Source: an uncultured Blastocatellia bacterium
GTDB lineage: Bacteria; Acidobacteriota; Blastocatellia; HR10
Length of the DNA: 64,000 nt
Direction: 5' to 3'
NCBI GenBank assembly: GCA_937934295.1
Contig: CALHAI010000013.1
Location: 5,865 to 69,864 of the forward strand
Shown here: piece after piece, positions 4,286-55,043 of the stretch
Layout of the letters: every line of letters starts with the position of its first letter
Position numbering within the stretch: position 1 is the first letter of the stretch
Translations under genes and position numbers: made by a program
Notes under the pieces: generated by a model
Seen by the model: only the letters and a program-made list of their open reading frames with translations
Database searches by the model: none
What the model was told of the DNA's origin: nothing

Positions 4286-4291
4286 CTGGCG

Positions 4292-35433: not shown

Positions 35434-35619
35434 CCGCCCCCCTGCTTCGGCGCTCGTTAAACTGTATACCACGCTGAGGGTTTTCGTCCAGGTGGTCTTC
35501 ACAGCTCTTCAGGAGGAGGCGCTCTTGACTCTGCACGATGCGCGTGATAGAAGGTAGCACCTTACTGTCAAGGCGAGGGAGTTGCTGGAAGTTTGACATC
35601 TCTTTACGGAGGTTGGGCG

Positions 35620-37263: not shown

Positions 37264-37396
37264 ACGGCAGTGGCGCTTGGCTGTGCGCACGTCTGACGAT
37301 GCCCGCCGTCAATCATGAGATCGCGTCTTCGCATCGGGTACTCGGGTCCTTGCGGGGAGATCGAACACCTAAGCGAGCCCGCGAGCGGGCGTCCGA

Positions 37397-38659
37397 TTGC
37401 GTCCCTTCTTCTTGAAGCGGCGCCATGGGTTTGGTATCGTATCGCCCGTGGTTCCGGTCGAGGAGGCGCAAGCGATCATTTTGCAGAGCGTCGCTCCAGT
37501 CGGCGAGGAGGCGGTTCCACTGGCCGAAGCGTTAGGGCGGGTCTTGCGTCAGCCGATTCGTGCTGATATAGATCTCCCCCCTTTCGATCGCGCGATGATG
37601 GACGGTTACGCCGTGCGGGCCGAGGACACGGCGAGGGCGCCCGTGCGCTTGCGCGTGGTGGGGGAGGTGTTGGCCGGGATGACCTTCCCCGGCTCGATCG
37701 CTCCGGGTGAGGCGGTGAAGATCATGACGGGAGCGGCCGTCCCACCCGGGGCGGATGCCGTCGAACGTGTCGAGAAGACGGAGCGCGAGGGCGAATGGGT
37801 GATTCTTCGCGAACCCGTTCAAGTGGGACAGCACATCACGCGACGTGGGAGTCAGGCGCGGGAGGGGGAGATCGTGCTCGAGCCAGGGATTCGCATTGGT
37901 CCGGCAGAGATCGCGGTCCTCGCTTCCTTCGGCTCTGCGACGGTTCGCGTCGCGCGCCGGTTGACACTGGGTGTGCTCTCGACCGGGAGCGAATTGGTGG
38001 AAGTCGGCGCGCGTCCTTCGCCCGTTCAAATTCGCGATTCCAATAGCCCGACGCTTCGCGCCTGCTTGACGATGGCAGGTGTGGGGGCGCATCCATTGGG
38101 GATCGTCGCTGACGATCTCTCGGGGATCGAATCTTCCATTCGTTCGGCTTTGGAGCACTTCGATGGACTCCTCATCACCGGTGGGGTTTCGATGGGCGAG
38201 GCCGATTTGGTGAAGGTCGCGCTGCGCCAGATTGGCGCGCGCCTGTTCTTCGAGCGGGTGCGCCTTCATCCGGGCAAACCGTTCTGTTTTGCCCTCTTCG
38301 AGGGGAAGCCCATCTTCGCCTTGCCTGGCAATCCCGTCTCCGTCGTCGTGACGTTCCTTCTCTTCGTCCTTCCGGCGCTCCGCCGCATGCTGGGATACCG
38401 GGAAGAGCACCTCCCCCTCTTCGAAGCGACGATGACCGAAGATGCTCGGCATTCGCCCGAGCGACGGAGTTATCTGCCGGCCTTCGTGTGGTTCGCCGAA
38501 GGCCAGGCGTTCGTTCGACGCGTCCCTTGGGAAGGGAGTTCCGATCTCGTGGGATTTGCCCGCGCGAACGCGCTGCTCATCGTCCCGGAAGGCGTGGTGT
38601 CGGTGAAGGCGGGGGAGCGCGCGCGCGTGCTCCTGCTGCCGTGGGAGGGATTGCCGTGA
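37397..38659 (+). CDS. moeA: molybdopterin molybdotransferase (start uncertain; ORF begins with TTG, GTG alternative at about 37448)
   Basis: [56 protein letters not shown] is a MoeA N-terminal signature. GGVSMGE...PGNPVS. Confidence 0.75.
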
Positions 38660-39135
38660 AAGACCTCACCCACGTGGACGCCGAAGGGCGAATTCAAATG
38701 GTGGACGTGAGCGCTAAGCCTGTGACCGAACGGCGGGCTGTAGCGAGCGGCTTCGTGCGCCTGCGCAAGGAGACGCTGCGGGCCATCCGAGAGCGGCGGA
38801 CGCCGAAGGGCGATCCGCTGGAGGCAGCTCGATTAGCGGGGATTCTCGCGGCCAAGCGGACGGCGGAGTTGATCCCCCTTTGTCATCCGCTTCCGCTCAC
38901 GCACATCGATGTCGAAGCTGAGGTGAAAGCGGACGGCATCGCCCTTACGGCCTCGGTGGCGACGACGGCACAAACGGGCGTGGAGATGGAAGCGCTTGTG
39001 GCTGTGAGCATCGCCGCGCTCACACTCTACGATATGTGCAAGGCCATAGATCGAGAGATGACGATCACGGATATTCGTTTGGAGCAAAAGACTGGGGGGA
39101 CGTCGGGGGATTTCGTGCGAGAGGAGGACGGGTGA
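38656..39135 (+). CDS. moaC: cyclic pyranopterin monophosphate synthase accessory protein MoaC
   Basis: [27 protein letters not shown]...[38 protein letters not shown] at 38656 overlaps the moeA TGA (GTGA). Confidence 0.85.
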
Positions 39136-39197
39136 GTCGGTCTCTCATTCGAGAGCCGAAGCGTGATCTTCCGCGAGATCGCTTTGGGGCGGAGAAG

Positions 39198-40853
39198 ATG
39201 AAGCGAGCTCTTTTGAAAGATGCGAGCGCTCTTGTCCGAAGGGTTGCCGTGCTCGCCGTGTCGAGTCAGATGCTCTTTGTATGGGGCATCGGCGCGGGAT
39301 GGGGGCAACAGACGACGCCGCCGACGATCGATCTCGGCACGCCGGGTGCCGTTCACGTCACCCTCAACGGCGCGTCGAGTGGCGATCGCTTGGAGATCCT
39401 TCGCGTGGCCGATGTCAATGGCGATGGCGTGGACGACGTCGTGGTCGCCGGGCGATTGGCCAACGGGCCGGAGGGGTTTCGTTTCGATGCCGGCGGCGTG
39501 TTCATCGTGTTGGGAGGGGTGGACTTGATTCGCGGGACGATGCGGGATCTGCATGATCGCCCTGACATCATCATCCATGGGGCGGATGCGAATGACCGCT
39601 TGGGCACGTCGCTCGCCGTCGGCGACGTCAATGGGGATGGTATTGCGGATATCATTGTGGGCGCTCCGGGAGCCGATGGACCCGGAGAGCTGCGATCGGG
39701 CGCCGGAGAGATTTACGTTGTCTTCGGCGGTCCGCATTTGGCGCGCGGAACCATACGTGACATGGCGGGCTTGGTCGCCCCCGGGGCCGACGTGGTGATC
39801 TTCGGGCCGGAACCCACAGCTTCACTGGGCGCCTCACTCGCCGTCGGCGATGTCAATGGGGATGGCGTCGCGGACATTCTCGCGGGAGCGGCGACGTCGT
39901 CTCAGCCGCGAGGTGACCGCCTCTTTGCCGGGGCGCTCTACGTGATCTTCGGTGCGCGCGAGTGGATGAGTGGTCTGGCGCGCGACCTGGCCGATCCGGC
40001 GAGCGCGGACGTGACGATCTTTGGCCCTAGCTCTCTCAGCTTCTTCGGATTTCAGATCGCCGTTGGGGATGTGAACGGGGATGGCGTGCCTGATATTGTG
40101 ACGAGCGCGCCGCTGGCCGATGGTCCGCAGAACGAGCGATCAGAAGCGGGAGAGGTCTACGTGATCTTCGGGGGGGTTCACTTGGTTCGGGGAACTGTGC
40201 GCGATGTCGCACCGGGATCGGCTGCCGGATCCGATGTCGTGATCTTCGGCGCGGCGGCTCAGGATCTGCTCGGATATACGCTGCTTCTGGCCGATGTGAC
40301 CGGAGATGGCGTCCTCGATCTCATCGTCGGCGCACTCCAGGCGGATGGGCCGGAACGAAAGCGACCGGATGCGGGCGAAGTGTATATCTTCTTCGGGGGG
40401 GTAACGTTCGCCTCCTCGGCCACGCGCGATGTCGCGGGGCTTGTGGCGCCGGCGCCGGATGTGGTGCTCTATGGGGCTGAACCCTTCGATGAGTTCGGAG
40501 CGGCACTCGCCGCCGCGGACCTGGATGGGAATGGCGTTGCGGATCTCGTGGTCGGCGCTCCTGGGGGGGATGCCAAGGAGAATCAGAAGATTGACGCCGG
40601 CGAGGTCTATGTCTTCTTCGATCGGAGCATAGCTCAAAGTGGCACGGTGCGCGATGCCGGAAACCCGGACTTCATCCTCTTCGGCGCGAATAACGGAGAG
40701 CGCACGGGGAGTTGCATCGCCTTCGGCGATGTCAATGGAGATGACGTTCTCGATCTCTTGGTGAGCGCTCCAGAAGGAGGCGGCGTTCGCCTGAGCGCTG
40801 GATCGGTGTACATCGTCTTCGGCCCCCTTGTGCCCCTTGGGGGAGGAGGATGA
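39198..40853 (+). CDS. secreted integrin-alpha-like FG-GAP repeat protein (about 9 repeats)
   Basis: Repeated GDVNGDG(V/I)(A/D)D..VGAPGADGP....AGE(I/V)YV(I/V)FGG units. GGAGAAG RBS before the ATG at 39198. Signal peptide. Confidence 0.65.
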   Translation: MKRALLKDASALVRRVAVLAVSSQMLFVWGIGAGWGQQTTPPTIDLGTPGAVHVTLNGASSGDRLEILRVADVNGDGVDDVVVAGRLANGPEGFRFDAGGVFIVLGGVDLIRGTMRDLHDRPDIIIHGADANDRLGTSLAVGDVNGDGIADIIVGAPGADGPGELRSGAGEIYVVFGGPHLARGTIRDMAGLVAPGADVVIFGPEPTASLGASLAVGDVNGDGVADILAGAATSSQPRGDRLFAGALYVIFGAREWMSGLARDLADPASADVTIFGPSSLSFFGFQIAVGDVNGDGVPDIVTSAPLADGPQNERSEAGEVYVIFGGVHLVRGTVRDVAPGSAAGSDVVIFGAAAQDLLGYTLLLADVTGDGVLDLIVGALQADGPERKRPDAGEVYIFFGGVTFASSATRDVAGLVAPAPDVVLYGAEPFDEFGAALAAADLDGNGVADLVVGAPGGDAKENQKIDAGEVYVFFDRSIAQSGTVRDAGNPDFILFGANNGERTGSCIAFGDVNGDDVLDLLVSAPEGGGVRLSAGSVYIVFGPLVPLGGGG

Positions 40854-40894
40854 GCGCACGCGGCGCCCGCAGATTCCCACCGAGGAGGAGCCAT

Positions 40895-43036
40895 ATGCTC
40901 GAGCGAATGGGGAGACGCGCGAAGATGCTCGCGCTCATCAGCGGGTATCTCGTGGGGCTCTCTCACGGTGTCCTGCCGCTTCGCGCGCAGGAGACGCCAC
41001 CGTTGATCATCGAGACGATTGCCGGAGGGGGGATCGGCGAGGGCGAGAGCGCCCGCGATGCCACATTGGCGTCGCCCTGGGCGCTTTTGGTGACCGAGGA
41101 GGGGGAACTGCTGATTGCGGACACGGAGAACCATCGCATTCGCAAGGTCGATCGCGATGGGATGATTGCGACGATTGCCGGGACGGGAGTCAACGGATTC
41201 GGTGGCGATGATGGGCCGCCGGATAAGGCACAGCTCTGGTCGCCGCGCGGTCTGGCCTTCGATCCAGATGGGAATGTGCTTATCGCCGATACGGCGAATC
41301 ACCGGATTCGTCGGATCGAGCGTAGGGCTGAGGCGCTCGTCATCACGACGATCGCGGGGACAGGATCTGCAGGCTTCGGAGGGGATGGAGGATCGGCCAA
41401 GAACGCGCAGCTCAGCAGTCCGCGCGGCCTCGCCGTGGATGCAGCCGGTAACATCTACATCGCCGATACGGGCAATCACCGGATTCGGAAGATCGATGGG
41501 AGCGGGAACATCTCGACGGTCGCCGGCGATGGGACGCGTGGATTCGGAGGCGATGGGGGAGCAGCGACCTCGGCGCAGTTGAACTCGCCGGTGGCCGTCG
41601 TCGTTTCGCCCTCGGGCGATCTCCTCATCGCCGACGCCAGGAATCATCGCATTCGCAAAGTCTCCGGGGGGACGATCACGACGGTCGCCGGAACGGGCTT
41701 GCCGAGGTTCTCCGGAGATGGGGGGCTGGCCGCGCAAGCGAGTTTGAACGTCCCCATGCATCTGACCTTCGACAGCGCCGGGAACCTCTACGTGGCCGAT
41801 TCCGGGAACAATTGCGTGCGCAAGATTGATCCGTCGGGCATGATCGCGACGGTGGCTGGAAGCCGCGTTCGGGGATTCGCCGGAGATGGTGGGAGCGCGC
41901 TGGAGGCGCGGTTGAACATGCCGGTGGCTCTCGCTCTGGGCACTGATGGGACGATCTTCATCGCCGATGCCGGGAATAATCGGGTGCGCGCTGTTGATCC
42001 GCAGGGAGTGATCCGCACGGTGGCCGGCGGGGGGATCGGGGATGGAGGAGATCCGCGTCAGGCGGTGCTCAATCTGCCCTATGGTGTGGCCGTGGACGCG
42101 CAGGGTCGCCTCTATATCGCCGATACGCAGCATCATCGTATTCGCCGCATGAGGTTGGACGAGGAGAATCCGCGCATCGAGACGATCGCGGGCACGGGCG
42201 TCTCCGGATTCAACGGCGATGATCGGCCGGCCGTCGAAGCGCAATTGAACTTCCCCCGCGGGCTCGCCGTAGATGCGGCCGGGAATCTCTATGTCGCTGA
42301 TATGTTCAACCATCGCGTGCGCAGGATCACTCCGGAGGGCGTGATCACGACGGTCGCCGGATCAGGTCGAGCCGGATTCTCTGGAGATGGGGACTTGGCC
42401 ACGCGCGCCGAGCTGCGATTTCCGCTGGCCATCGCTGTGGACGCGGAGGGGCGGCTCTACATTGCTGATGCCGGGAATAATCGGGTGCGCCGCGTGGATC
42501 TGGACGGCACGATCACGACGATCGCGGGGACGGGGAAGCGCGGATTCGAGGGGGATGACGGACCGGCCATCGCGGCGGCGCTCGATACACCGGCGGCGCT
42601 CGCTTTCGATAAGGATGGTCATCTCCTCATCGCCGATATGGGCAATCATCGCCTGCGGCGCGTGGATCTCTCAACGGGCACGATCGTGACGATCGCGGGG
42701 AAGGGGACGCCAGGCTCCGGCGGAGATGGTGGCGCGGCCAAAGACGCCGAACTGAATACACCGGGTGGGCTCACCGTAGATGGTACGGGAACGATCTACA
42801 TCGCCGATTCCGGGAATCACCGCGTGCGAAAGATCGGCAGTGATGGGAACATCAGCGCGGTGACCGGGACGGGGACCGCCGGATTCGGCGGCGATGGCAC
42901 GCTCGCGAGCGTCGCGACATTGAATTTCCCGACGGGTTTGGCGATCGCCCCGGATGGACACCTGGTGATCGCCGATACGTTCAACCATCGCGTTCGCAAA
43001 TTGCGGCCGCAGCCGCAAGCGCCTTCGGAACCATAG
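40895..43036 (+). CDS. secreted NHL-repeat protein (about 14 NHL repeats, probably two beta-propellers)
   Basis: Fourteen-fold repeat of P.GLA.D..GNLYIADTGNHRIRKID..G.I.TIAGTG. Signal-peptide-like N-terminus. Confidence 0.7.
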   Translation: MLERMGRRAKMLALISGYLVGLSHGVLPLRAQETPPLIIETIAGGGIGEGESARDATLASPWALLVTEEGELLIADTENHRIRKVDRDGMIATIAGTGVNGFGGDDGPPDKAQLWSPRGLAFDPDGNVLIADTANHRIRRIERRAEALVITTIAGTGSAGFGGDGGSAKNAQLSSPRGLAVDAAGNIYIADTGNHRIRKIDGSGNISTVAGDGTRGFGGDGGAATSAQLNSPVAVVVSPSGDLLIADARNHRIRKVSGGTITTVAGTGLPRFSGDGGLAAQASLNVPMHLTFDSAGNLYVADSGNNCVRKIDPSGMIATVAGSRVRGFAGDGGSALEARLNMPVALALGTDGTIFIADAGNNRVRAVDPQGVIRTVAGGGIGDGGDPRQAVLNLPYGVAVDAQGRLYIADTQHHRIRRMRLDEENPRIETIAGTGVSGFNGDDRPAVEAQLNFPRGLAVDAAGNLYVADMFNHRVRRITPEGVITTVAGSGRAGFSGDGDLATRAELRFPLAIAVDAEGRLYIADAGNNRVRRVDLDGTITTIAGTGKRGFEGDDGPAIAAALDTPAALAFDKDGHLLIADMGNHRLRRVDLSTGTIVTIAGKGTPGSGGDGGAAKDAELNTPGGLTVDGTGTIYIADSGNHRVRKIGSDGNISAVTGTGTAGFGGDGTLASVATLNFPTGLAIAPDGHLVIADTFNHRVRKLRPQPQAPSEP

Positions 43037-43059
43037 TCGGATCCGGCTGCGGCCTTGAC

Positions 43060-44379
43060 TCAGCGCCTCCTTGGCTGATGCGCGCGCCGTAGCTCTTCTG
43101 CCATCGCCCGAATCTCCGTGAGCGCGCGCTTCATCTCGCTCCATCCGTACCAGAGTGCGTAATCGGGATTCGCGTGAAACGTCCCCTGAAATGTTCGCAT
43201 GCGATGCTCCAGATGCATGACGAAGAGCTTCTGTTCGATTGGCGTCGGCGCGTCGTGAAAGGCGAGGAGATCGGGGAAGGGATACGCATAGTGGGCCGGT
43301 TTTTTCAGGATGCCGTCCTTGTAGAGATCGGCGACGATGCGGATGGCTTCGGCCAGCAGGCGATCGGCCTCTCGGATCATCTGATCACCCTTCTCCAACT
43401 CGGCGCGCGCGAAGTGGAGCGAATGGCACTGATTGCAGATTCGGAGCATGCGCTCGCGTTCCTTCTGCCAGTCCTCTTGTGTGAGACGCGCGACATCCGC
43501 CTGCTTCACCAGGTCGAAGCGGGCCGTCGGCTTGCCCTCGGGATCGAGCACGCCGAGCGCCTGTAAGATCGTCGTCTGATCGGCTGCCCACTGTTTATCT
43601 TCCGGCAGCGGCAGCCGCACAGCGAGAAATCCCCAGGCCGTGCGCACGGCATGATTCCCCTCGGGCATATGACAGGTCTGGCAGGTGGGCGCGGCGACCG
43701 TCTCCGGCAGCGTCTTGTTCTGCTTCAGGAGGTATCGGACGCCATGCTTGGAGGACGAGTACATCTCCCACTGCGGATGATCGAAGCCCATGTGGCAGGT
43801 CTGACAGGCCTGCGGTTGGCGCGCTTCCTCCGTCGAGAAGAGATGTCGCGTGTGGCAGGCGTCGCAGGAGGCAACGCCGAAGCCTGCGCCTTGACGCTTC
43901 AACTCGCGGATCTCGGCCTCTGTCTTCAGTCCGATCTTATGACACCCTCCGCAGCCTTTCATCCCTTCAGTCAACGCCATCGGGAGCCAGTGCGTCGTCG
44001 GCATCGCCTTCATCGCCGCCCATCCGAGGGCGTGCTTACCCTGCTTGAATTGTTCGACCTGCACCTCATGGCACAGCGCGCATGTCTCCGGAGTCGGGAT
44101 GCGCACCTTCTCCACATCTTCGGCTGACATGTGCTCCTCGCCGTGGCAGACGGCGCAATCAATCCCGTTCCGACTGTGCTTGCTCAACTGCCAATCCGAG
44201 ACGATGTTGGGCGTGACCTTTTTATGGCATTCGACGCAGGCCGCCCCTTGTCGGGAACGCGCTTCGGAGAAGCGGGGGAGCCATCGCGGATCCCCTTGAG
44301 GCCCGCGCTCGGCTTCGCCAAAGGCGAGGATCATCCCGAACACGAACGCGATTCCAAGTATCCGTCGAAATCCAGACAT
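43060..44379 (-). CDS. octaheme c-type cytochrome, HAO-like/multiheme nitrogen-cycle family (exact family unresolved)
   Basis: Signal peptide plus eight CxxCH motifs (CVECH, CAVCH, CALCH, CGGCH, CDACH, CQTCH, CQTCH, CNQCH) in about 440 aa. AAGGAGGAG RBS. Confidence 0.6.
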   Translation of the reverse strand: MSGFRRILGIAFVFGMILAFGEAERGPQGDPRWLPRFSEARSRQGAACVECHKKVTPNIVSDWQLSKHSRNGIDCAVCHGEEHMSAEDVEKVRIPTPETCALCHEVQVEQFKQGKHALGWAAMKAMPTTHWLPMALTEGMKGCGGCHKIGLKTEAEIRELKRQGAGFGVASCDACHTRHLFSTEEARQPQACQTCHMGFDHPQWEMYSSSKHGVRYLLKQNKTLPETVAAPTCQTCHMPEGNHAVRTAWGFLAVRLPLPEDKQWAADQTTILQALGVLDPEGKPTARFDLVKQADVARLTQEDWQKERERMLRICNQCHSLHFARAELEKGDQMIREADRLLAEAIRIVADLYKDGILKKPAHYAYPFPDLLAFHDAPTPIEQKLFVMHLEHRMRTFQGTFHANPDYALWYGWSEMKRALTEIRAMAEELRRAHQPRRR

Positions 44380-44613
44380 GATGGGCTCCTCCTTACGCGG
44401 GACATTTTATGATGCAGTGCGAGGATGCGTCAATCCTTCGGAGCGCGTGAAGCGTCGGCGCCATCAGGGGACCGAAAGCTTCCTCCTTCCCGGCCTTCAG
44501 ATCGTCTACCAATCCCCTCTCTTCAATGAGCATCACAGCGAGGGAAGTCTATTTGCGAGAGAGGCGTGAGGCAAGGTGCGGCACACCTTTCATCCGTCGT
44601 GAAGAGCTGGCGT

Positions 44614-46026
44614 TTAACGGGAACGCGCGCGCAGATACCGATCGATGCCCGCCGCGGCATCGCGGCCATCTCGCAGAGCCGTCGCCAGAAGGTCCGCGCC
44701 TCGCACGACATCGCCTCCGGCGAAGACGCCAGGCCAGGAGGTCATCTTGTCCGCATCCACTTCGTACGTTCCCCAGGGTGTGCGCTTGAGTCGCGGATCC
44801 TCGAGCGAGACGGGCGATGGATCGAATCCGAAGGCGATGATCACCATATCCGCCTCCAGCTCGAAGTTGCTGCCGGGAATCGGGATGGGCTTTCGGCGTC
44901 CCTCCTCATCCGGCTCCCCCAACTCCATGCGGATACACTCGACCTTACGCACCCACCCGTTCTCATCGCCGATGAAGCGAATGGGATTCGTGAGCCAGAG
45001 GAATTCCACGCCCTCTTCTTTCGCGGCTTTCACCTCGCGGCGGCTGCCCGGCATATTCTCCTCGTCCCGGCGATAGGCGCAGATGACGCGCGCCGCCCCC
45101 AACCGCCGCGCCGTGCGCAACGAGTCCATCGCCGTATCGCCACCGCCGAGGACGACGACCGTCTTCCCGGTGAGATCATCCCGTCTCCAGTCACCGGAGG
45201 GGAGAAATCGCGGCTCCACATTATTCCGAATGAGGAAGGGGAGCGCATCGTGAATCCCCTTGAGTTCGATCCCCTCGATCTTCGGACGCTTAGGGACCGT
45301 CGCTCCCGTGCCCAAGAAAATGGCCGAATAGCCTTGCGCGAAGAGGTCATCCAGAGTCACGTGCTCCCCGATTCGGGTCCCGCAGACGAATTCGACGCCC
45401 AACGCGCGCAAGTATGCGATGCGGCGCTCGACGACCCACTTCTCCAGCTTGAAGCCGGGGATGCCATAGATGAGCAATCCGCCGGGGAAGGGCCACGCCT
45501 CGAAGACGGTGACCTGATATCCCCGCTTGACGAGTTCCTCAGCGCACGCGAGTCCTGCCGGACCGGCGCCCACGATGGCCACGCGCTCGCCGGTCGCTGG
45601 CGCGACCTCCGGACACGGAATGCCGCCGAGCTGTCGAAAGGCATACTCGTTGATGAACCATTCGATGGCACCAATGGCCACGGGTTCATATTTGATCCCC
45701 AGCACGCACGCGCCTTCGCAGAGCCGATCCTGCGGACAGATTCGCCCGCAAATCTCCGGCATGTTACTCGTCTGGCGCGAGCATTCGGCCGCTTCGAGAA
45801 ACCGCCCTTCGGCCGTCAGCACGAGCCAGTCGCGGATGCGATTGTTGAGCGGACAGGCCTGTTCGCACGCCGGATTCTTGCACTTAATGCATCGCGCGGC
45901 TTCACTCTGGGCCTCCTCAGCCGTGAGTTCAAGCGAGACTGCCAGAAAATCGCGAATCCGCTCCTCAGGCGGGCGCTTCCGCGGCTCGATCCGAGGTCGC
46001 TTGGCCGGAGCAACTCTTCCCGACAT
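44614..46026 (-). CDS. GltD/NfnB/SudA-family NAD(P)H oxidoreductase (FeS plus FAD/NAD(P) binding; glutamate synthase small-subunit-like)
   Basis: CIKCKNPACEQACPLNNRIRDW...CGRICPQDRLCEGACVL is an N-terminal FeS region. RVAIVGAGPAGLACAEEL and VVVLGGGDTAMD are dinucleotide folds. GAGGAGAGGGGA RBS before the ATG at 46026. Confidence 0.7.
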   Translation of the reverse strand: MSGRVAPAKRPRIEPRKRPPEERIRDFLAVSLELTAEEAQSEAARCIKCKNPACEQACPLNNRIRDWLVLTAEGRFLEAAECSRQTSNMPEICGRICPQDRLCEGACVLGIKYEPVAIGAIEWFINEYAFRQLGGIPCPEVAPATGERVAIVGAGPAGLACAEELVKRGYQVTVFEAWPFPGGLLIYGIPGFKLEKWVVERRIAYLRALGVEFVCGTRIGEHVTLDDLFAQGYSAIFLGTGATVPKRPKIEGIELKGIHDALPFLIRNNVEPRFLPSGDWRRDDLTGKTVVVLGGGDTAMDSLRTARRLGAARVICAYRRDEENMPGSRREVKAAKEEGVEFLWLTNPIRFIGDENGWVRKVECIRMELGEPDEEGRRKPIPIPGSNFELEADMVIIAFGFDPSPVSLEDPRLKRTPWGTYEVDADKMTSWPGVFAGGDVVRGADLLATALRDGRDAAAGIDRYLRARSR

Positions 46027-46199
46027 CGTTCCCCTCTCCTCATCCGAGGATTCTCCCATCTTGGGATCACAGGCATGGGGTAGCAAATCTCATGCCATCT
46101 CCCATGCCGCGCCAAACGCCCATGCGCTCAATCGGTTCTTCGTTGACCGGGGGAAGTCCGATTACACCTGGCGCGGCAAATGCCTCAACCGGTGCGCGA

Positions 46200-46225
46200 A
46201 ATCGCTTCGCGAGCGTGAAGCGATT
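46200..46225. promoter_or_regulatory. inverted repeat AATCGCTTC-N8-GAAGCGATT in a divergent control region
   Basis: 9-bp perfect arms, extendable to 12 bp with one G/T mismatch. Lies between the divergent oxidoreductase and cytochrome operons. Confidence 0.3.
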
Positions 46226-46270
46226 CGGGCAAGCGGCGGCCTCTTTCTTCGGCATGAGGCGAACCTTGGA

Positions 46271-46284
46271 GGGGGAATTCCCCC
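46271..46284. promoter_or_regulatory. 14-bp perfect palindrome GGGGGAATTCCCCC
   Basis: Exact palindrome in the same 410-bp divergent intergenic region. Followed by the half-site-like GGGAGAATTCAC. Confidence 0.3.
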
Positions 46285-46496
46285 AAGGGTGGGAGAATTC
46301 ACGTAGCGCGGCGAAGGCTCGCCCGGCTCTCCCCCTCATGCGACTAAGCTTGCACCAGGCATGGGCTTAAATCCGAAAGGCTGTGGCACGCTTGACCCCT
46401 TCAGGGCGATGCGGTACGGAATTTGCTTGACTCCGAGGCGGAGTTCGCGAAAGCTTGACGTCGGAGAGGGCGTAGGTCGTCAAGCGCGAGGGAGAG

Positions 46497-47671
46497 ATGG
46501 CGCGAAGAACGATGCCAAAGCTCTTTTTGGGAGGTTTTCTCCTTTGGGGCGTGGCGATCGTCGGGTGCCGTCGTTCGGAGATGTCCGAGCCAGTCGTCTT
46601 TCCCGCAGGACGCTTCACTTCAGCGCGGCAGTGCGGCACCTGTCACCGGGACATCTATGCAGCGTGGCGTGGTTCGCAACACGCGCGAGCCGCCGAGAAC
46701 CCCATCTTCCGTGAGTCCTATGAAGAGGCGGCGAAGATCGCCGGAGATGCGGTGGCCCGACTCTGCTTCATGTGTCATGCGCCGACGGTCGTGCTCACGA
46801 GCGATTACGCCCTCGCGCAGGAGGTGACGCGCGAAGGCGTCACGTGCGATTTCTGCCATTCCTTGACCGGGACGGACTTGGAGCGGCGCGAGCACCCGTT
46901 CCTGCTTGATGTTGGGGCGACCAAATACGGCCCATTCGCGATGCCGCTTCGACCGGACATCGCGTGGCCTTCTCCGAATTCCACCTCAGCTCGTTCCAGT
47001 GTGCGGGATGTCACGAGTATCGAAACGCGCACGGTGTGCCCATCCTCTCGACCTATTCGGAGTGGGAGCAGTATCGGCAGCGCGGGGGGGATAAGGAGTG
47101 TCAGCACTGTCACATGCCCCAGGTCCTGGCCAACATCGTGGATCCAAAGGTGAAACGGGTGCGCGGCGCCTTTGTGAATCTCCACGCGATGCCCGGGGGA
47201 CATGCTCGCGATCAACTCGTGCGCGCACTGGAGATGCGGATCATGGAGGCGCACCGCACGCCGCGCGGATTGCGCGTGAAGATTCGACTCCGAAACGTCG
47301 GTGCTGGCCATGCCGTGCCCTCCGGCAGTCCGATGCGAAAAGTGATCTTGCGCGTCGAGGTCGTGACCGAAAGCGGGCGACGCGTTCAGCAGGAGCGCAT
47401 CTATCAGCGCGTCGTGTTGGACAAACGAGGTGCGGCGATTCGTCGAGATAGCCTCCTCTTCACCGAGGCGCGAGCGATCGCCCGCGATACGCGATTGGCG
47501 CCGGCCGAAGAGCGCGTGGAGGAGTTCCTGCTGCCCATCTCGGTCGATGAGAACCTCACCCTCACGGCGGCGCTCATCTACCTCTACTCACCGCACGAGC
47601 GTCCGGAGACCGAGACGCGCATTGAGTTTCTCTCCGAGAAGAAGGAGTTGTTCTCTCGATGGGTTCGGTGA
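46497..47671 (+). CDS. pentaheme c-type cytochrome lipoprotein, interrupted by an apparent -1 frameshift near 46950-46966
   Basis: Frame A (46497-46947) has a lipobox-like AIVGC and the motifs CGTCH, CFMCH and CDFCH. Frame B (from 46964) continues with CAGCH and CQHCH. Frame A becomes Ser/Arg-rich junk downstream of the junction, which lies in a G-run (gcgtggcc). Confidence 0.5.
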
Positions 47672-47753
47672 GTCGTTCCTTCAGAGGCTTCATATTGGGG
47701 AGGATGCAGCGTGAGCCCCGTCACGCATGCGTTCCCCTTTGAGGAGGGAGACT

Positions 47754-48539
47754 ATGCGTCTTGTTGCGAGACAAAGCGCGTTTCGTTTTTTGCCCATGCT
47801 GCTTATGGGGATATTGGGCGGGATGCTCCCACAAGCCGCTTTGGCGCAGGAGATGATGGGGCGTCCCGTAATGGGGAAGGAGACCGTCGCCACGGGACCT
47901 GATGGGAGGATCTACGTCGTGGCTTCTCCGGCACAGCACCAGCAGTGGATGGGCCCCGCATTCGGGCGCACAGTGCTTTTCGCTTTGGACCCAACGACGT
48001 TTCGCGTTCTGTGGCGATATGTCCTTGAGGATGAAGACCTCGTCGCCTCTCGTCCGGTTGTAGGCGCGGATGGCACGGTCTATCTCACCATGTCCGAGAC
48101 GATGGAGTTCGGTCCGCCGCTGGATTCCCAGATGGCCTTGCGGAACGCTCGACTTTTGGCCGTTCGAGGGGGAACGCTCAAATGGGCTTATGAGTTCGAT
48201 GCGCCGTTCGCCTCTGATCCTGTACTCAGCTCGGAGGGGTTGATCTTTGTGACCACCAGTGCTGTTGGTCCAGTTGGGATGCCAGGGCCCTGGATGTTCG
48301 CACGCTCATCGTTTCTCGCCCTTGAGGATCGCGAGACTTCGCCCGTCGTACGCGCGCGTCTTGATCTTGGCTCGCTCGCTGTGTCCGCTCCCGTTGTCCA
48401 TTCGCGTCCGATGCGGTCATGGGTGGTCTACGTGACGGGAGAGGGGACCGGCAGGGGGCCGGGGATGGGGATGGGTCAGGGGACGGTGCTGTTTATCATT
48501 GGCCCGGACTTCTCCGTGACGCGCGTGTCCTTACGCTGA
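47754..48539 (+). CDS. secreted PQQ-like (BamB-type) beta-propeller repeat protein
   Basis: Signal peptide MRLVARQSAFRFLPMLLMGILGGMLPQAALA. Repeats of G.DG.IYV...LFALD..T..VLWRY type. GAGGAGGGAG RBS. Confidence 0.45.
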   Translation: MRLVARQSAFRFLPMLLMGILGGMLPQAALAQEMMGRPVMGKETVATGPDGRIYVVASPAQHQQWMGPAFGRTVLFALDPTTFRVLWRYVLEDEDLVASRPVVGADGTVYLTMSETMEFGPPLDSQMALRNARLLAVRGGTLKWAYEFDAPFASDPVLSSEGLIFVTTSAVGPVGMPGPWMFARSSFLALEDRETSPVVRARLDLGSLAVSAPVVHSRPMRSWVVYVTGEGTGRGPGMGMGQGTVLFIIGPDFSVTRVSLR

Positions 48540-48566
48540 GGCGCTGGGGAGGAAGGGAGGCACCAT

Positions 48567-49004
48567 ATGCCATTGTGGAGCGAGCAGCGTCGGAGACTCT
48601 TGAATCTCCTCTTGGGGACGAGCGTGGGGGCGACGCTGGTGGCCATCTTCTATCCGATCCTCAAGTTCATGATCCCGCCTGAGGTCATCGAGGCGACGCA
48701 GACGAGCGTCGTCGCTGGGCGCGTGAACGAACTGCCGCCGAATTCGGGGAAGATCTTCAAGTTCGGGAACAAGCCTGGCCTTCTGGTGCGCACGCCGACG
48801 GGGGAGTACAAGGCCTTCTCAGCCGTCTGCACGCACCTGGATTGCATCGTGCAGTATCGGCCGGACATGCAGCTGATCTGGTGCGCGTGCCATAATGGCC
48901 AGTACAGCTTAAGCGGGAAGAACATCGCCGGCCCGCCCCCGCGCCCCTTAGAGGAGTACGTCGTCAATATTCGCGGAGAGGAGATCGTCGTCTCTAAGGC
49001 GTGA
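48567..49004 (+). CDS. Rieske [2Fe-2S] subunit of a cytochrome bc/b6f-type complex
   Basis: N-terminal TM helix. CTHLDC...(15 aa)...CACHNGQY matches Rieske box I/II (CxH...CxxH). Confidence 0.85.
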
Positions 49005-49063
49005 TCTCGCCAGCGTGACTGGAGGATCCACCCCTCGTGCTCAAGGGGGAGAGAGCTGACGTT

Positions 49064-50137
<1,074 letters not shown>

Positions 50138-50144
50138 AGGGAGG

Positions 50145-51410
50145 TTGGCGATGGCGCGCGCGCGATGGGCTGTCTTGATCCTGACGATCGCCACGCTTGT
50201 TGGATCCGGCGCTGATTGGACGCGCGCCGAGCAGAAGAAGGATTCCTGCGTCGAATGTCACGCGGCTTTGGAAGGATCGCTCGCGGCTCCCGTCGAGGCG
50301 ATGCGAGAGGATATCCACCGAGCGCGCGGGTTTTCCTGCGCCGATTGTCACGGCGGGGATCCTTCGCGCGATGACCCTCTGGAGTCTATGGACCCGAAGA
50401 AGGGGTTCCTCGCACGGCCGTCACCGCGCGCGATCCCAGCGCTCTGTGGCCGCTGCCACAGTGATGCCGAATTCATGAAACGATACAATCCCGCCCTGCG
50501 CGTAGATCAAGAGCGGGAGTACTTCACGAGCGTTCACGGGAAGCGGCTTCGAGCCGGAGATACGCGCGTGGCGACCTGCACGAGCTGTCACGGGGCGCAT
50601 GGGATTCGCCCCGCCCACCACCCGCTCTCTCCCGTCTACTCCCTCCGCGTGGCCGAGACGTGCGCGCGCTGTCATGCTGATGTCGCGTACATGAAGGGAT
50701 ATCGAATCCCCTCCGACCAGTACGAGCGGTACAAGCGGAGCGTCCACGCGCGTGCGCTCTACGAGCGGCAGGACCTCTCGGCGCCGACCTGCAACGATTG
50801 TCATGGGAATCACGGAGCGGTGCCGCCCGGCGTCGCCTCGGTCGCGCATGTCTGCGGGCAATGTCATGTGCGGCAGTCCACGCTCTTTCAAGCGAGCCCG
50901 CATAAGGCGGCTTTCGATGTCATGCGATTGGCCGAATGCGTGTACTGCCACGGGAATCACGATGTCCCCTCTCCCACGGACGAAATGATTGGGACGGGAG
51001 AGAAATCCGTGTGCCTCTCCTGCCATCCGCCGGGAGATGTGGGGTATCAGGCGGCCGAGCGCATGCGCGCCATGTTGGACGAGCTCTCGCGCAATCTGGA
51101 GCGTGCCCAGGCGATCTTGGACCGTGCCGAACGGGCGGGCATGGAGGTGAGCCGGGCGAAGTTCGAACTGAACGAAGCGCGCGACGCGCTCACGCATGCG
51201 CGCGTGCTCATCCATGCCTTCTCAGTGAAGGAGTTGGAGAACGTCATCCGCCCGGGCCTGGAGGTCGCCCAGCGTGGGTATCACGCTGGGGAGCGTGCCC
51301 TCGCGGAGTTGAACTATCGGCGCAAGGGACTCGCCGTGTCGCTGCTGTTCATCCTCTTCCTCGCCTTCCTGCTCTATTTGAAGGTTCGAGAGATTGAAGG
51401 AACCAGATGA
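50145..51410 (+). CDS. nonaheme c-type cytochrome with a C-terminal transmembrane anchor
   Basis: Signal peptide. Nine CxxCH motifs (CVECH, CADCH, CGRCH, CTSCH, CARCH, CNDCH, CGQCH, CVYCH, CLSCH). C-terminal helix [17 protein letters not shown]. Immediately downstream of Rieske/cyt b. Confidence 0.7.
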
Positions 51411-51413
51411 ACC

Positions 51414-52247
51414 TCACTTCACTCGTATGAGCGTTGAGCTGGCACGGAACAGCTCCTCTTCCGGAAGCGCGAGGACCTCATCGGCTAAGAGCGCCGTCCA
51501 GCTCGGCCATCGCCGTCCCGGCTCCAGCAGCACGTAGTTGTAGACGCGGTCATTGCGAATGAAGCGAACGAAGGGCGCGCCGTGAAATCCAAGCGTCCCT
51601 CGACCGGGCGTCGCCCCGACAAGCACCATTACGGCATCGATCACGCAACCGGCATCCTCCGGGAGGATCACCTGCGTCCCCCAGGCTTCGGCGAAATCGA
51701 GGAAGGTCGAGCGGAAGTGTTCGACAAGGCGCGCGCCGAAGACCAGTCCGCCGCACCGCTCGCCGTGGAAATTCTCCGCCTGAAGGAGCAGCGATTCCAG
51801 GAGCGCCTGACGGTTGGCCGGCCGCCCGATCTGCTCGTTGCGCGCCGCGTAGATCGCGTCGCGGCTGCGAAAATACGGCTTCACGTCCACAACGGGCGTG
51901 CCATCTACGAGATCCAACCGATCCAGGTATAGGCATGTTCCCTCGATCCGCTCGATTCGCGCAGCCGTCATGGCGATGGGATTCGGACGCGTGGGCGAGC
52001 GCACGGCGAAGACCCCGTGCAAGCCCACTTCGCTTTTGTCACTCACGCCGCGCGGCGTCACCAGCAGCCGCGTGCGATCGGCTTCATGCAACCACGCCAG
52101 AATCCATACGTGCGTGTGCTTTTCCAGATGCCGCAGCCCCTCGGCGAACTCTGGGAAGATCTCGACCCGAGCGGGGACGCCGAACGTCGGCATCGCGTGC
52201 CGATCGGCGATCGGACTCCGTACGATGCCAATGGGCGTGAGCACCAT
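51414..52247 (-). CDS. tRNA (adenine37-N6)-methyltransferase TrmO/TsaA family protein with a C-terminal extension
   Basis: LTPIGIVRSP...EVGLHGVFAVRSPTRPNPIAMT...DGTPVVDVKPY is the TrmO (YaeB) signature. ATG at 52247 with a GAGGAG RBS, 19 nt after the nrdJ stop. Confidence 0.65.
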   Translation of the reverse strand: MVLTPIGIVRSPIADRHAMPTFGVPARVEIFPEFAEGLRHLEKHTHVWILAWLHEADRTRLLVTPRGVSDKSEVGLHGVFAVRSPTRPNPIAMTAARIERIEGTCLYLDRLDLVDGTPVVDVKPYFRSRDAIYAARNEQIGRPANRQALLESLLLQAENFHGERCGGLVFGARLVEHFRSTFLDFAEAWGTQVILPEDAGCVIDAVMVLVGATPGRGTLGFHGAPFVRFIRNDRVYNYVLLEPGRRWPSWTALLADEVLALPEEELFRASSTLIRVK

Positions 52248-52266
52248 GGGCGCGCTCCTCGCGCGC

Positions 52267-54048
52267 TCAGACGCGACACTCTTCAGGATCGCATCGGGAG
52301 GCGTGGTCATAGTGATGCGCTTCCTCATCAAGGCCAAGCTCCAATACCTGCGCCGATTTGCTGCCGTAGCGGTAAATCGTGATCCCTTTCAATCCTAACT
52401 CCCACGCGCGCCAGTAGGCCCGCGCGACATCCTCGACCGTCGCATCCTCGGGCATGTTGATCGTCTTGGAGACCGAATTGTCCACGGCGCGCTGGAAAGC
52501 CGCTTGGATCTGGAGATGGCGGTCAGGGGAGATCTCCAGAGCCGTCACAAAGAGCCGTTTCAGCTCCTCGGGGACCTGGGCGATGTCGCGCAATCGTCCT
52601 TGCGCGAGAACGGCCTCCAGCACCTCGTCCGCTTTGAGCCCATAGCGCTCCAAGTATTCGAGGAAGAGCGGATTCACCTCATAGAGCGTTTGCCCACCGA
52701 GCACATGCGTGCGCCGATAGGCCAGAGCGAAGAGCGGCTCGATGCTCGCGCTCGTATCGGCGATGATGCTGATCGTCCCTGTCGGGGCGATGGCCGTGAG
52801 CGCGGCATTACGCACTCGCCGATTGCGCGCTTCGTGCACGCTCCCCTTCCAGTTCGGGAAGACGCCGCGCTCCTTGGCCAGCTCGGTTGACGTCGCGAGC
52901 GCTTCTTCGGCGATCACCCGCATCACCCGTTCGGCCAGGTCCACGGCATCGTCCGAATCATAGGAGAGGCCAAGCCGAATGAGCATCTCGGCGAACCCCA
53001 TCACGCCAAGGCCGATCTTCCGATTCCCACGCGTCACGCGCTCGATCTCCGGGATCGGATATCGGTTCACCTCGATGACGTCATCGAGAAAGCGCACAGC
53101 CTTTCGAACGGTCTCGCGCAGCTTCTCCCAATCCACCTCCGTTCGTCCCCCGCGCTCGCGCAGCATGTGCTTCAAGTTGATCGAGCCCAGGTTGCATGAT
53201 TCGTAAGGGAGCAAGGGGATCTCCCCGCACGGGTTCGTCGCCTCAATGGGGCCGAGCTGCGGCGTCGGATTCGCGCGGTTGATGGCGTCGAGGAAGAGCA
53301 GTCCGGGATCGCCCGTCTGCCACGCCGCGCGTGCGATCTCCTCGAAGACGCGCCGAGCGTTCAATCGGCCGACAGCGCGCCCGGTTCGTGGATTGATCAG
53401 TTCGTAGTCGTCGCCGCGGTGAGCCGCATCCATGAACGCATCGGTCACGGCGACGGAGATGTTGAAGTTCTGAAGTGCTCGTTCATCCCGCTTGGCCGCG
53501 ATGAACTCTAAGATGTCCGGATGGTCCACGCGCAAGACACCCATGTTCGCCCCGCGCCGTTTCCCCCCTTGCTTGATGTGCTCGGTCGCGCTGTCGAAGA
53601 TCTTCATGAAGGAGACCGGCCCTGAGGCCTCTCCACCCGTCGAAGCCACGACGTCTCCCTTCGGGCGCAAGCGGGAGAAGGAGAAACCCGTGCCCCCGCC
53701 CGTACGCTGCACGAGCGCCATCTGCTTCACAGCCTCGAAGATCTCTTCCATCGTATCTCCGACCGGAAGCACGAAACAGGCGCTCAATTGTCCAAGGGGC
53801 GTGCCGGCGTTCATCAACGTCGGGCTATTGGGTAGGAAATCGCGCGAGGTGAGCAGCTCATGAAAAGTCTCCTCCCATCGTCGGGCGCGCTCGGCCGTTC
53901 CTAACAAAAGCTCCGCCTCGGCGATCGCTCGCGCCACACGCGCGAAGAGTTCCTCAGGGGTCTCTATGAGATGACGCTCAGCATCTCGCCGCAGATAACG
54001 AGCTTCCAGAACGCGACGGGCATTCGGCGAAAGCGGCAACTCCACCAT
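52267..54048 (-). CDS. nrdJ: adenosylcobalamin-dependent ribonucleotide reductase (class II)
   Basis: LSPNARRVLEARYLRRD...LPNSPTLMNAGTPLGQLSACFVLPVGDTMEEIFEAVKQMALVQRTGGGTGFSFSRLRPKGD matches class II RNR active-site and B12 regions. 593 aa. Confidence 0.8.
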   Translation of the reverse strand: MVELPLSPNARRVLEARYLRRDAERHLIETPEELFARVARAIAEAELLLGTAERARRWEETFHELLTSRDFLPNSPTLMNAGTPLGQLSACFVLPVGDTMEEIFEAVKQMALVQRTGGGTGFSFSRLRPKGDVVASTGGEASGPVSFMKIFDSATEHIKQGGKRRGANMGVLRVDHPDILEFIAAKRDERALQNFNISVAVTDAFMDAAHRGDDYELINPRTGRAVGRLNARRVFEEIARAAWQTGDPGLLFLDAINRANPTPQLGPIEATNPCGEIPLLPYESCNLGSINLKHMLRERGGRTEVDWEKLRETVRKAVRFLDDVIEVNRYPIPEIERVTRGNRKIGLGVMGFAEMLIRLGLSYDSDDAVDLAERVMRVIAEEALATSTELAKERGVFPNWKGSVHEARNRRVRNAALTAIAPTGTISIIADTSASIEPLFALAYRRTHVLGGQTLYEVNPLFLEYLERYGLKADEVLEAVLAQGRLRDIAQVPEELKRLFVTALEISPDRHLQIQAAFQRAVDNSVSKTINMPEDATVEDVARAYWRAWELGLKGITIYRYGSKSAQVLELGLDEEAHHYDHASRCDPEECRV

Positions 54049-54092: not shown

Positions 54093-54302
54093 TCATCCCT
54101 TCGCGCCGAGCCACTCGTTCAGCTCCCGAACGAGCCGTTCGAGGGCTGCCGCGTCATATCCCTTCTCCTGTGCGTTCTCCTCCAGCGTCCCCCATGCCGG
54201 TTCGCCGCATTCCAGGCATCGAATCCCCCTCTGCAGGAGGAACCGAACCGACTCCGGATACCGGGAGACCAGTTCCTCGATCGTGATGTCTTTCGTGACC
54301 AT
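54093..54302 (-). CDS. DUF1858 domain protein
   Basis: MVTKDITIEELVSRYPESVRFLLQRGIRCLECGEPAWGTLEENAQEKGYD matches the DUF1858 pattern (M.I.E...YPE....L...G..C..C......TLEE.A...G.D). Confidence 0.55.
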   Translation of the reverse strand: MVTKDITIEELVSRYPESVRFLLQRGIRCLECGEPAWGTLEENAQEKGYDAAALERLVRELNEWLGAKG

Positions 54303-54308
54303 GGCTGC

Positions 54309-55043
54309 TCACTTCTCCGGACCGATGGGGATTTTGATGCTCACCGCCCCCCGCAGATCGCCGGAGCGATACCCGGTCGCTCGGTCCTCGGGATATTTCT
54401 CAGCCAGGACCGCGCGCACCGAGAAGGGGATCATCTCCTTTGGTCCGTGACAGGTGATGCACATCGGACCGACGAGGATTGGCCTCATGTAGCGGAGATA
54501 CCGTCGGCTATCTTCGTACACGATGTCAAAGGATTCATCCGCGAGCGCTCGCACGCGATGTTGCTGCTCGAACTCTTCGAGCTTGCGTCGCTCGTACTCA
54601 TCGGGAATGTCCTTCGGATTGCGATACCGCAGGCTCACGCGCCGGATCGAAGCGCCCGTTCGCGCCTCGATCTCACGCGGGATCTCTTGCGCGATCTCCG
54701 AGCAGACGCGCACGGCGCCCTCGTATCCGCCCTTCTCCAGTTCCGCCATGAGGAGCCCTCGAACTTTCTCTAACAACTCGTCCGCAAGTCGCCGCGCTTG
54801 GCGAAGTGCGGATTCCACGGATTCCTTCTGCCCCTGTGGCTCATCAGAATAAACGCGCAGGGAGATCGCACTCATCCAAGCGAAGAGTCCCATCACGATG
54901 ATGAGAGCACAGCGCTTCGCCATTCGCAGATTCCTCCCCCTCACGGATGTCTGGCGCTTTCCTAGGGTGCGTACGAATGAAGCGAGCACGCTCGAAAAGT
55001 CCGGCGGGGGAGTGTCTTTCCCCCCCCGCCGCGCTGCGCTCAC
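54309..55043 (-). CDS. DUF3365-like c-type haem (single CxxCH) sensor-domain protein, secreted or anchored
   Basis: N-terminal hydrophobic segment. Single CITCHGPKE near the C-terminus in a DUF3365-like context (Y.RPI...CITCHG). Confidence 0.45.
   Translation of the reverse strand: MSAARRGGKDTPPPDFSSVLASFVRTLGKRQTSVRGRNLRMAKRCALIIVMGLFAWMSAISLRVYSDEPQGQKESVESALRQARRLADELLEKVRGLLMAELEKGGYEGAVRVCSEIAQEIPREIEARTGASIRRVSLRYRNPKDIPDEYERRKLEEFEQQHRVRALADESFDIVYEDSRRYLRYMRPILVGPMCITCHGPKEMIPFSVRAVLAEKYPEDRATGYRSGDLRGAVSIKIPIGPEK

Follow-up and report, generated by a model that had tools for sequence, protein, structure and literature searches.

Does a Rieske/cytochrome b (R/b) gene cluster that lies beside genes for an octahaem cytochrome c (OCC) and an NAD(P)H-dependent flavoprotein encode a quinol-oxidizing, NAD(P)H-forming system of the anammox type, or a simpler respiratory module? 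The question is raised by positions 43060-51410 of a 64,000-nucleotide stretch of DNA from an uncultured Blastocatellia bacterium (Acidobacteriota; contig CALHAI010000013.1), the whole of which we call the window. A preliminary description had listed a pentahaem lipoprotein cytochrome c, a propeller protein, a Rieske subunit, cytochrome b and a nine-haem cytochrome c on the plus strand, and a GltD/NfnB-type flavoprotein and an OCC resembling hydroxylamine oxidoreductase (HAO) on the minus strand. All seven genes were found in place, and CXXCH counts bore out the 5, 9 and 8 haems assigned to the cytochromes. The likeness it had drawn to anammox R/b clusters also holds at the level of composition: the published Kuste4569-4574 cluster comprises a Rieske protein, an NAD(P) oxidoreductase, a b6-like cytochrome b, a five-helix protein like subunit IV (SUIV), a multihaem cytochrome c and an HAO-like OCC, and it is proposed to carry out a bifurcation, driven by quinol, that yields NAD(P)H (PMC12954380). 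The explanation that we consider best, and hold with moderate confidence, is that electrons would pass from quinol through the R/b complex and multihaem cytochrome c to an HAO-type reductase lacking the cross-link tyrosine ("Tyr-less"), with GltD as a separate neighbour. The locus is probably a respiratory N-oxide-reducing module of ordinary kind, which resembles the anammox clusters in domain families only.

The OCC gene (43060-44379, minus strand) encodes 439 aa with eight CXXCH motifs and a hydrophobic N terminus, either a membrane anchor or a signal peptide. The protein matches PF13447 (E = 3e-32; 112 bits against a cut-off of 21.9), and all 8 matches in a PDB sequence search belong to the HAO family, the top one being Kustc0458, a Tyr-less HAO that reduces nitrite (6h5l; E = 1e-33; identity about 24%). 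An AlphaFold2 model built from a 25-sequence alignment had a mean pLDDT (predicted local distance difference test) score of 57; its haem-rich half is unreliable and the geometry of the tyrosine site is not readable from it. As weak corroboration, a Foldseek search with this low-confidence model returned HAO, HDH or IhOCC as its top 11 matches, which were all the significant ones, and matches to NrfA and ONR were non-significant. By all three measures the protein groups with HAO, as the preliminary description had supposed, and not with OTR, MccA or NrfA. The catalytic Asp-His pair is kept: FDHPQWE aligns with VDHNNWE of NeHAO (Asp267/His268), and D200 and H201 are invariant among 25 homologues. 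By alignment only, the cross-link Tyr467 of NeHAO falls at Leu409, with Tyr407 and Tyr411 close by. In εHao proteins, as cited in PMC8940962, a Trp replaces the nitrifier Tyr and a Met precedes it by eight residues; in OCC, within an alignment that held no εHao sequence, W410 is one residue off the aligned Tyr position and residue 402 is an invariant His, not Met. Because the cross-link Tyr is absent at the aligned position, OCC is probably of the reductive type. HAOs of the Tyr-less kind act in vitro as reductases of nitrite and hydroxylamine, with negligible hydroxylamine oxidation (PMC8042395), and their genes are highly abundant in anoxic mats (PMC8940962).

The plus-strand genes appear to form an operon for a menaquinol-oxidizing Rieske/cytochrome b6-type complex, a type common in Acidobacteriota. 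The Rieske [2Fe-2S] subunit (48567-49004) has a PetC-type transmembrane (TM) helix and a Rieske domain, and cytochrome b (49037-50137) is a fusion of b6 and SUIV of 366 aa with four haem-ligand His residues and a PEWY motif. With b6f-type complexes these two subunits share the Rieske CTHxxC/CxCH boxes and PetC-type anchor, the four haem His and PEWY, but the haem ci Cys of b6 is absent: IWYYFGG aligns with IFYCLGG of b6 (Cys35), with Tyr instead. No His occurs in cytochrome b residues 1-43, and its SUIV part has three hydrophobic segments. The last gene (50145-51410) encodes a cytochrome c with nine CXXCH motifs, a signal peptide and a C-terminal TM helix, which stands in for cytochrome c1/f. 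At the front of the operon are the pentahaem lipoprotein gene (46497-47671; five CXXCH, lipobox IVGC, distantly like ExtKL) and a gene for a small secreted protein with PQQ-like beta-propeller repeats (47727/47754-48539), recognized by a sub-threshold Pfam PQQ_2 match and by summed PDB matches to PQQ-type and designed beta-propeller repeats. The propeller protein is lineage-specific: among 1.8 billion 50%-cluster representatives it has one full-length relative, all other matches being repeats in giant proteins.

The gene neighbourhoods of OCC elsewhere connect it to this complex. The database holds more than 7200 OCC homologues, and the OCC clade accounts for at least 499 loci in species-representative genomes, from Acidobacteriota, Bacteroidota, Gemmatimonadota, Aminicenantes, Zixibacteria, Nitrospirota, Thermodesulfobacteriota, Calditrichota and other phyla; we counted neighbours in the best 80 of these loci, whose OCC proteins are 70-94% identical. 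In three Bacteroidota ('Cytophagia') metagenome-assembled genomes (MAGs; L004, L005 and L008), OCC, Rieske, cytochrome b and nine-haem c genes follow one another in a co-directional operon, with identities to the window of 81-84%, 61-66%, 67-70% and 48-50%, respectively. These operons differ in being a single unit without GltD, the pentahaem lipoprotein or the propeller gene, and in L005 and L008 the nine-haem gene is followed by a gene of ~545 aa and then by large multihaem genes. In three further loci (L028, L031 and L076), an R/b and nine-haem module lies 7-8 kb from OCC. Overall, a cytochrome b gene occurs within 10 kb of OCC in 8 of the 80 loci, which, with 1.08 Mb of flanking DNA, comes to one in every 135 kb or so, a proximity that appears well above expectation from an assumed one to three R/b loci per genome. 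Because OCC and R/b genes recur together in several phyla and above this expectation, a functional link between them is supported. Of the synteny that the preliminary description proposed to look for in relatives, only the pairing of OCC with R/b recurs elsewhere; the linkage of GltD is confined to one narrow acidobacterial lineage.

Several further observations concern these loci. The octahaem protein of ~415 aa (L002-L081) is better conserved than the cytochrome b (67-70%) or nine-haem cytochrome (48-50%) of the same locus; its conservation across phyla implies that the protein is under very strong constraint, has been transferred horizontally at high frequency, or both. In L028 and L031 the interval before the R/b genes holds a divergent octahaem-FeS-NrfD-like trio and a 17-haem gene. 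The ~540-aa gene that follows the nine-haem gene is absent from the window; in L165 (2239-3864) Pfam identifies its product as DUF2339, and the genes of the same size and position in L005 (14415-16064) and L008 (8349-9977) are likened to it on size and position, without a Pfam scan. Its product may be an unrecognized accessory subunit.

In the scheme that we favour, the nine-haem cytochrome would be the membrane-anchored, periplasmic electron outlet of the complex, aided by the pentahaem lipoprotein and the beta-propeller protein. Electrons would run from quinol to the Rieske protein, on to multihaem cytochrome c and to OCC on the periplasmic face, among other acceptors; OCC would reduce nitrite, hydroxylamine or nitric oxide (NO), and energy would be conserved by the R/b complex. 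GltD would be an FeS flavoenzyme in its own right, cytoplasmic and dependent on NAD(P)H, under a separate sigma54-type promoter.

The separateness of GltD is suggested by the gene itself and by its relatives. It lies at 44614-46026 on the minus strand and encodes a cytoplasmic 470-aa GltD/NfnB-type FeS-FAD NAD(P)H oxidoreductase (Fer4_20 and Pyr_redox_2) with two N-terminal [4Fe-4S] motifs, FAD and NAD(P)H sites and no TM segment. Its TIGR01318 score is 495 bits, above the cut-off of 483, and its PDB matches include Azospirillum GltD (E = 9e-121) and Thermotoga maritima NfnB (E = 2e-116). We place the start at ATG 46026, as in the gene call of the near-identical contig L001, and not at the TTG 46086 (490 aa) chosen earlier, which is disfavoured because it overlaps a conserved promoter motif; with this start, the divergent control region measures 470 bp and not 410 bp. 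Within the window nothing marks the gene as an ordinary gltBD fragment: neither an open reading frame (ORF) above 826 aa nor a glutamate-synthase domain, as gltB would require, occurs among the called and scanned genes of the window. Likewise, no NfnA/SudB (PyrK-like FAD/[2Fe-2S]) partner was found at the locus or among the annotated and scanned window genes. GltD is thus a subunit of the type shared by NfnAB, GltBD and SudAB, but without an adjacent NfnA/SudB or GltB gene.

Orthologues of GltD at 89% identity or more occur only within its own lineage (L084-L087 and L089, by metagenome scan). There, synteny takes in even unrelated flanking genes (TrmO, and the NHL genes wherever the contig extends that far), and the shared GltD arrangement therefore carries no independent weight. 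The sole intermediate orthologue (67%, L088) stands alone among unrelated genes, and all further homologues are at most 49% identical. One of these, a 44% homologue in L118, had looked anammox-like, since it lies 2.6 kb from a pair of Rieske/cytochrome b genes; it was rejected, because NfnA directly precedes it, the two forming a classical NfnAB pair, and cytochrome bd genes come next. Outside its own lineage, GltD was not found near R/b or OCC genes in any of the loci examined. Its place beside OCC is most likely a lineage-specific accident of gene order and does not speak for a shared complex.

The arrangement of GltD and OCC as a minus-strand operon, proposed earlier, stands as adjacency, but a single operon is doubtful, because genes for an extracytoplasmic function (ECF) sigma factor and a zf-HC2 anti-sigma factor intervene in relatives and a sigma70-like match lies upstream of OCC. 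The gap between the two genes is 234 bp. No intrinsic terminator was found in it on the minus strand, and read-through is possible. The sigma70-like match (TTGACG-18-TAAAAT, 44404-44433, minus strand) lies just upstream of the OCC start; it is a consensus match only, and one such match in the region equals chance expectation. Near 44462 (44455-44470) is the junction of a deletion of ~0.76 kb relative to close relatives, at which 5 of 6 related sequences carry the ECF and anti-sigma pair: it is present in L002, L084, L085, L086 and L089 and absent from the window, L001 and L087. In L084 the pair occupies 4024-5050 and in L085 11493-12370, and proteins of such relatives are up to 97% identical to those of the window. 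This suggests that control of the octahaem gene by an ECF sigma factor is the ancestral state.

A connection of another kind is suggested by the control region between GltD and the cytochrome operon, which we aligned from six lineages (mean column identity 69%). Two of its conserved blocks fit the sigma54 consensus, and both are correctly spaced and oriented. A sigma54-type -24/-12 motif, TGGCATGAGATTTGCT, lies at 46082-46097 on the minus strand, ~55 nt upstream of the GltD ATG, and its GG and GC are invariant in all six. A second, CGGTACGGAATTTGCT, lies at 46412-46427 on the plus strand, ~70 nt upstream of the pentahaem gene; L086 and L087 have CGGCACGGGATTTGCA in its place, with one mismatch to the sigma54 consensus. 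Between these putative divergent promoters are two conserved palindromes, AATCGCTTCGCG/CGTGAAGCGATT at 46200-46225 and GAATTCCCCCA-N4-TGGGAGAATTC at 46275-46300. The core of the latter is kept in 6/6 lineages, the distal end of one arm being gapped in L087, and it lies 125-205 bp from either promoter motif, a typical enhancer distance; both palindromes are candidate sites for enhancer-binding proteins. The arrangement of divergent sigma54-type promoters around palindromes is newly described here, and the promoter function assigned to the motifs is putative. Counted across the window, sigma54 motifs are no more frequent than expected (8 observed, 8.3 expected), and the two sites are not significant by number; the case would rest on their position, their orientation and their conservation in six lineages. 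No sigma54 motif was found upstream of the OCC or R/b operons in L005, L008, L031 or L167, and no FNR/CRP box with up to 2 mismatches in either intergenic region of the locus. A 62-aa ORF called upstream of GltD in L001 was discarded as a gene; it overlaps the conserved promoter motif and the palindromes. In L088, where GltD stands alone, its gene too is preceded by a sigma54-like motif, and an NtrC-family regulator is encoded 3.4 kb downstream. That the genome of the window uses sigma54 enhancer-binding proteins is indicated by a 449-aa activator with PAS, sigma54-interaction and Fis-type helix-turn-helix domains, encoded 43 kb from the locus (1978-3327, minus strand). Of all the evidence, only the control region still speaks for a regulatory tie of GltD to the R/b operon; what it bears on is regulation and not a physical or electron-transfer link.

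A number of observations weigh against a route from the R/b complex to OCC with GltD as a bystander. The putative sigma54 promoters and shared palindromes suggest co-regulation of GltD with the R/b operon, which fits a functional link between them better than pure accident. The annotated and scanned parts of the window contain no nap, nar, nir or hcp genes. The window copy of the pentahaem gene lacks a single base after 46933 (GGCCC-ATTCG, against GGCCCGATTCG in L001), and the resulting frameshift splits it into two overlapping ORFs. The gene is intact in L001 (391 aa), L002 and L084-L087, and the window copy may be a pseudogene at strain level or reflect an error of assembly. About 72 of the 80 OCC loci have no R/b genes nearby, from which it would follow that OCC is independent of the R/b complex. 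Finally, the R/b and nine-haem complex may be the general complex III of the organism.

These last two points lead to the most serious competing explanation, which we regard as possible but clearly less probable: that three independent units stand side by side, the R/b complex being a general quinol:cytochrome c oxidoreductase, OCC drawing on the cytochrome pool and GltD serving cytoplasmic nitrogen or redox metabolism. The neighbours of OCC are indeed highly variable, the commonest being ResB/CcsA cytochrome-maturation genes (11/80) and a gene for a 715-aa multihaem protein (9/80). Homologues of the nine-haem cytochrome number more than 7800, named matches being mainly from Acidobacteriota, and the other contexts of this family that we examined have multihaem genes upstream and Crp/FNR regulators but neither OCC nor GltD, so the R/b complex is not dedicated to OCC. 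Moreover, in the sole lineage with the complete arrangement the entire region, unrelated flanks included, is syntenic. What speaks for the route to OCC over independent units is the rate at which R/b genes turn up near OCC (within 10 kb; one per ~135 kb of flanking DNA), which is well above the assumed background, and the existence in another phylum of genuine operons of OCC, Rieske, cytochrome b and nine-haem c. As to the ResB/CcsA genes themselves, they lie directly after the octahaem gene, for example at 11351-13515 in L031 and 1813-3801 in L028; ResB/CcsA-type maturation genes also occur beside other multihaem enzymes with special haem-attachment needs.

It is improbable that OCC works in the oxidative direction, oxidizing or detoxifying hydroxylamine or hydrazine-like compounds and feeding the electrons to the multihaem cytochromes, with the R/b complex not its donor. 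Membership of the HAO family with the catalytic Asp-His conserved would allow it, and the Joint Genome Institute (JGI) annotation of many homologues is hydroxylamine dehydrogenase. Against it stand the missing cross-link Tyr, which tunes these enzymes for oxidation, and the finding that characterized Tyr-less HAOs barely oxidize hydroxylamine (PMC8042395).

We consider it unlikelier still that the locus is a convergent or transferred analogue of Kuste4569-4574, in which quinol oxidation would be bifurcated, one electron going to an N-oxide at OCC and the other through cytochrome b and GltD to NAD(P)H. Three things make this idea attractive. The protein families coincide, both loci having a Rieske protein, a b6-like cytochrome b, an HAO-family octahaem protein, a flavoprotein like GltD/NfnB and a multihaem c where c1/f would be expected. 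GltD has no NfnA or GltB partner nearby. Finally, the two conserved sigma54-type motifs, with the palindromes that they flank, would drive GltD and the R/b operon in opposite directions. For a direct comparison we used an anammox-type contig of 6.6 kb (L164) that holds the whole cluster in the gene order of Kuste4569-4574; it was found through a 59-aa Rieske fragment of PDB 9rk4 with the S-K-Y motif of Kuste4569, direct matches being at most 98 aa long. BLASTP against L164 gave family-level similarity only (25-43% identity), and the gene order is different. Identity was 25% for OCC, 38.6% for GltD, 34% for cytochrome b, in the N-terminal half only and with N-termini that cannot be aligned, and 43% over 53 residues for the Rieske protein; for the multihaem cytochromes and the SUIV part there was no match. 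Values of 25-39% do not indicate orthology, and GltD is nearer to ordinary NfnB/GltD homologues (41-49%) than to its anammox counterpart.

The architecture differs as well. The anammox flavoprotein gene lies inside the R/b operon, between the Rieske and cytochrome b genes, whereas GltD of the window is outside it and on the opposite strand. The L164 flavoprotein has 585 aa with two C-terminal CxxCxxCxxxCP motifs, a polyferredoxin-type 2x[4Fe-4S] domain that would bridge to cytochrome b; GltD, at 470 aa, ends at the flavoprotein domain. Anammox cytochrome b is split, with a five-TM SUIV, and has a long N terminus with a His proposed to bind an extra haem b, whereas that of the window is fused, with a three-TM SUIV, and lacks such an N terminus; the haem ci Cys, also an anammox feature, is missing from it too. 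The anammox OCC has 582 aa and a C-terminal anchor, that of the window 439 aa and an N-terminal one. Finally, box II of the Kuste4569 Rieske protein reads CPCHGSKY, with the Ser of the high-potential motif, and that of the window CACHNGQY. In yeast, mutating this Ser lowers the potential by ~130 mV. Because the Ser is missing, the Rieske protein of the window is likely to be of the lower-potential, menaquinol type, and not of the high potential that bifurcation needs. To these differences are added the L088 orthologue of GltD, which stands alone with its own sigma54-like motif, and the confinement of GltD beside R/b or OCC genes to this one lineage. Judged by these comparisons, the locus shares protein families with the anammox system, not descent or architecture. 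Among the ideas put forward in the preliminary description, lateral spread from anammox bacteria is unsupported, given family-level identity and missing hallmarks, and so is a quinol:NAD(P)+/N-oxide oxidoreductase supercomplex, for which nearly all of the hallmarks tested fail.

The least probable explanation, to which we give very little credence, is that a plain GltD has been recruited to the sigma54 regulon of the R/b operon and forms with the Tyr-less HAO a convergent but structurally different analogue of the anammox R/b-2 cluster, which, if true, would couple quinol oxidation to N-oxide reduction outside and NAD(P)+ reduction inside the cell (or use NAD(P)H to drive electron input).

Returning to the R/b-fed reductase, a known parallel to it is found outside the anammox bacteria, in the nap-R/b-εHao cluster of Caldithrix abyssi (Cabys_2556-2564), which likewise has a Tyr-less HAO-type gene beside Rieske/cytochrome b genes and for which nitrite reduction by εHao, fed from quinol through R/b and multihaem c, has been proposed (PMC5317091). 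The Caldithrix cluster has nap, whereas the window has none but has dedicated nine-haem and five-haem cytochromes, and its OCC gene is on the opposite strand. A Calditrichota MAG (L068) carries an OCC 76% identical to that of the window. With εHao, Kustc0457 and Kustc0458, OCC shares the octahaem HAO fold family, the catalytic Asp-His and the lack of the cross-link Tyr, but it is shorter and membrane-anchored, and no Kustc0457-like partner was noted beside it. The Geobacter ext cluster (ExtKL, the Rieske-type ExtO, and ExtP) also encodes a pentahaem lipoprotein together with Rieske/cytochrome b; scores against the corresponding NCBIfam models fell below cut-off for ExtKL (59 against 250 bits) and ExtP (215 against 290 bits), and no porin or selenocysteine feature was noticed, although no search was aimed at one.

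The surroundings of the locus and its nearest relatives agree with a host among the hot-spring Acidobacteriota. As remarked in the preliminary description, the background is GC-rich and unlike that of an anammox genome: the GC content of the window is 60-65%, and the nearest genomes are Acidobacteriota MAGs. The nearest of all (L002) belongs to a hot-spring series and has proteins 72-95% identical; the nine-haem cytochrome of 'bacterium HR08' is 84% identical to the window copy. L001, a 147-kb ENA contig, is 99.94% identical over a shared 21 kb, along which eleven single-base differences are scattered besides the deletion at 46933. The annotated and scanned neighbours are housekeeping and cell-envelope genes (TrmO, ribonucleotide reductase, NHL- and FG-GAP-repeat proteins, MoaC/MoeA and glycosyltransferases), with no NfnA-like or N-oxide reductase gene among them, and an Rfam search of 42500-52500 with E up to 0.1 found no RNA family. 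Directly adjoining the octahaem gene, at 35593-43036, genes for large secreted NHL-repeat and FG-GAP-repeat proteins are interleaved with MoeA/MoaC molybdenum-cofactor genes. About 3 kb past the R/b operon are a DUF1858 gene (54093-54302, minus strand) and a Tll0287-like (haem-binding, PAS-like) gene (54309-54923, minus strand), whose products could be redox or NO-related sensors; in about five other loci, a 403-aa DUF1858/hemerythrin-type gene lies upstream of the octahaem gene.

Genes for Tyr-less HAO-type octahaem proteins are among the most abundant and least understood nitrogen-cycle genes of anoxic environments (PMC8940962), and the link of these proteins to the quinol pool is still unsettled. 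The R/b-fed HAO-type scheme has already been proposed for Caldithrix abyssi (PMC5317091), and the locus described here adds further comparative support to it; together with the Bacteroidota operons, it speaks for a dedicated R/b-multihaem route. The comparison with the anammox cluster also calls for caution in deducing mechanism from domain content, as unrelated family members can make up an anammox-like set of genes that lacks the features proposed to enable NAD(P)H formation. If the proposed route is correct, the passage of electrons through the R/b complex and multihaem cytochromes would make the reduction of nitrite or hydroxylamine by Tyr-less HAOs electrogenic.

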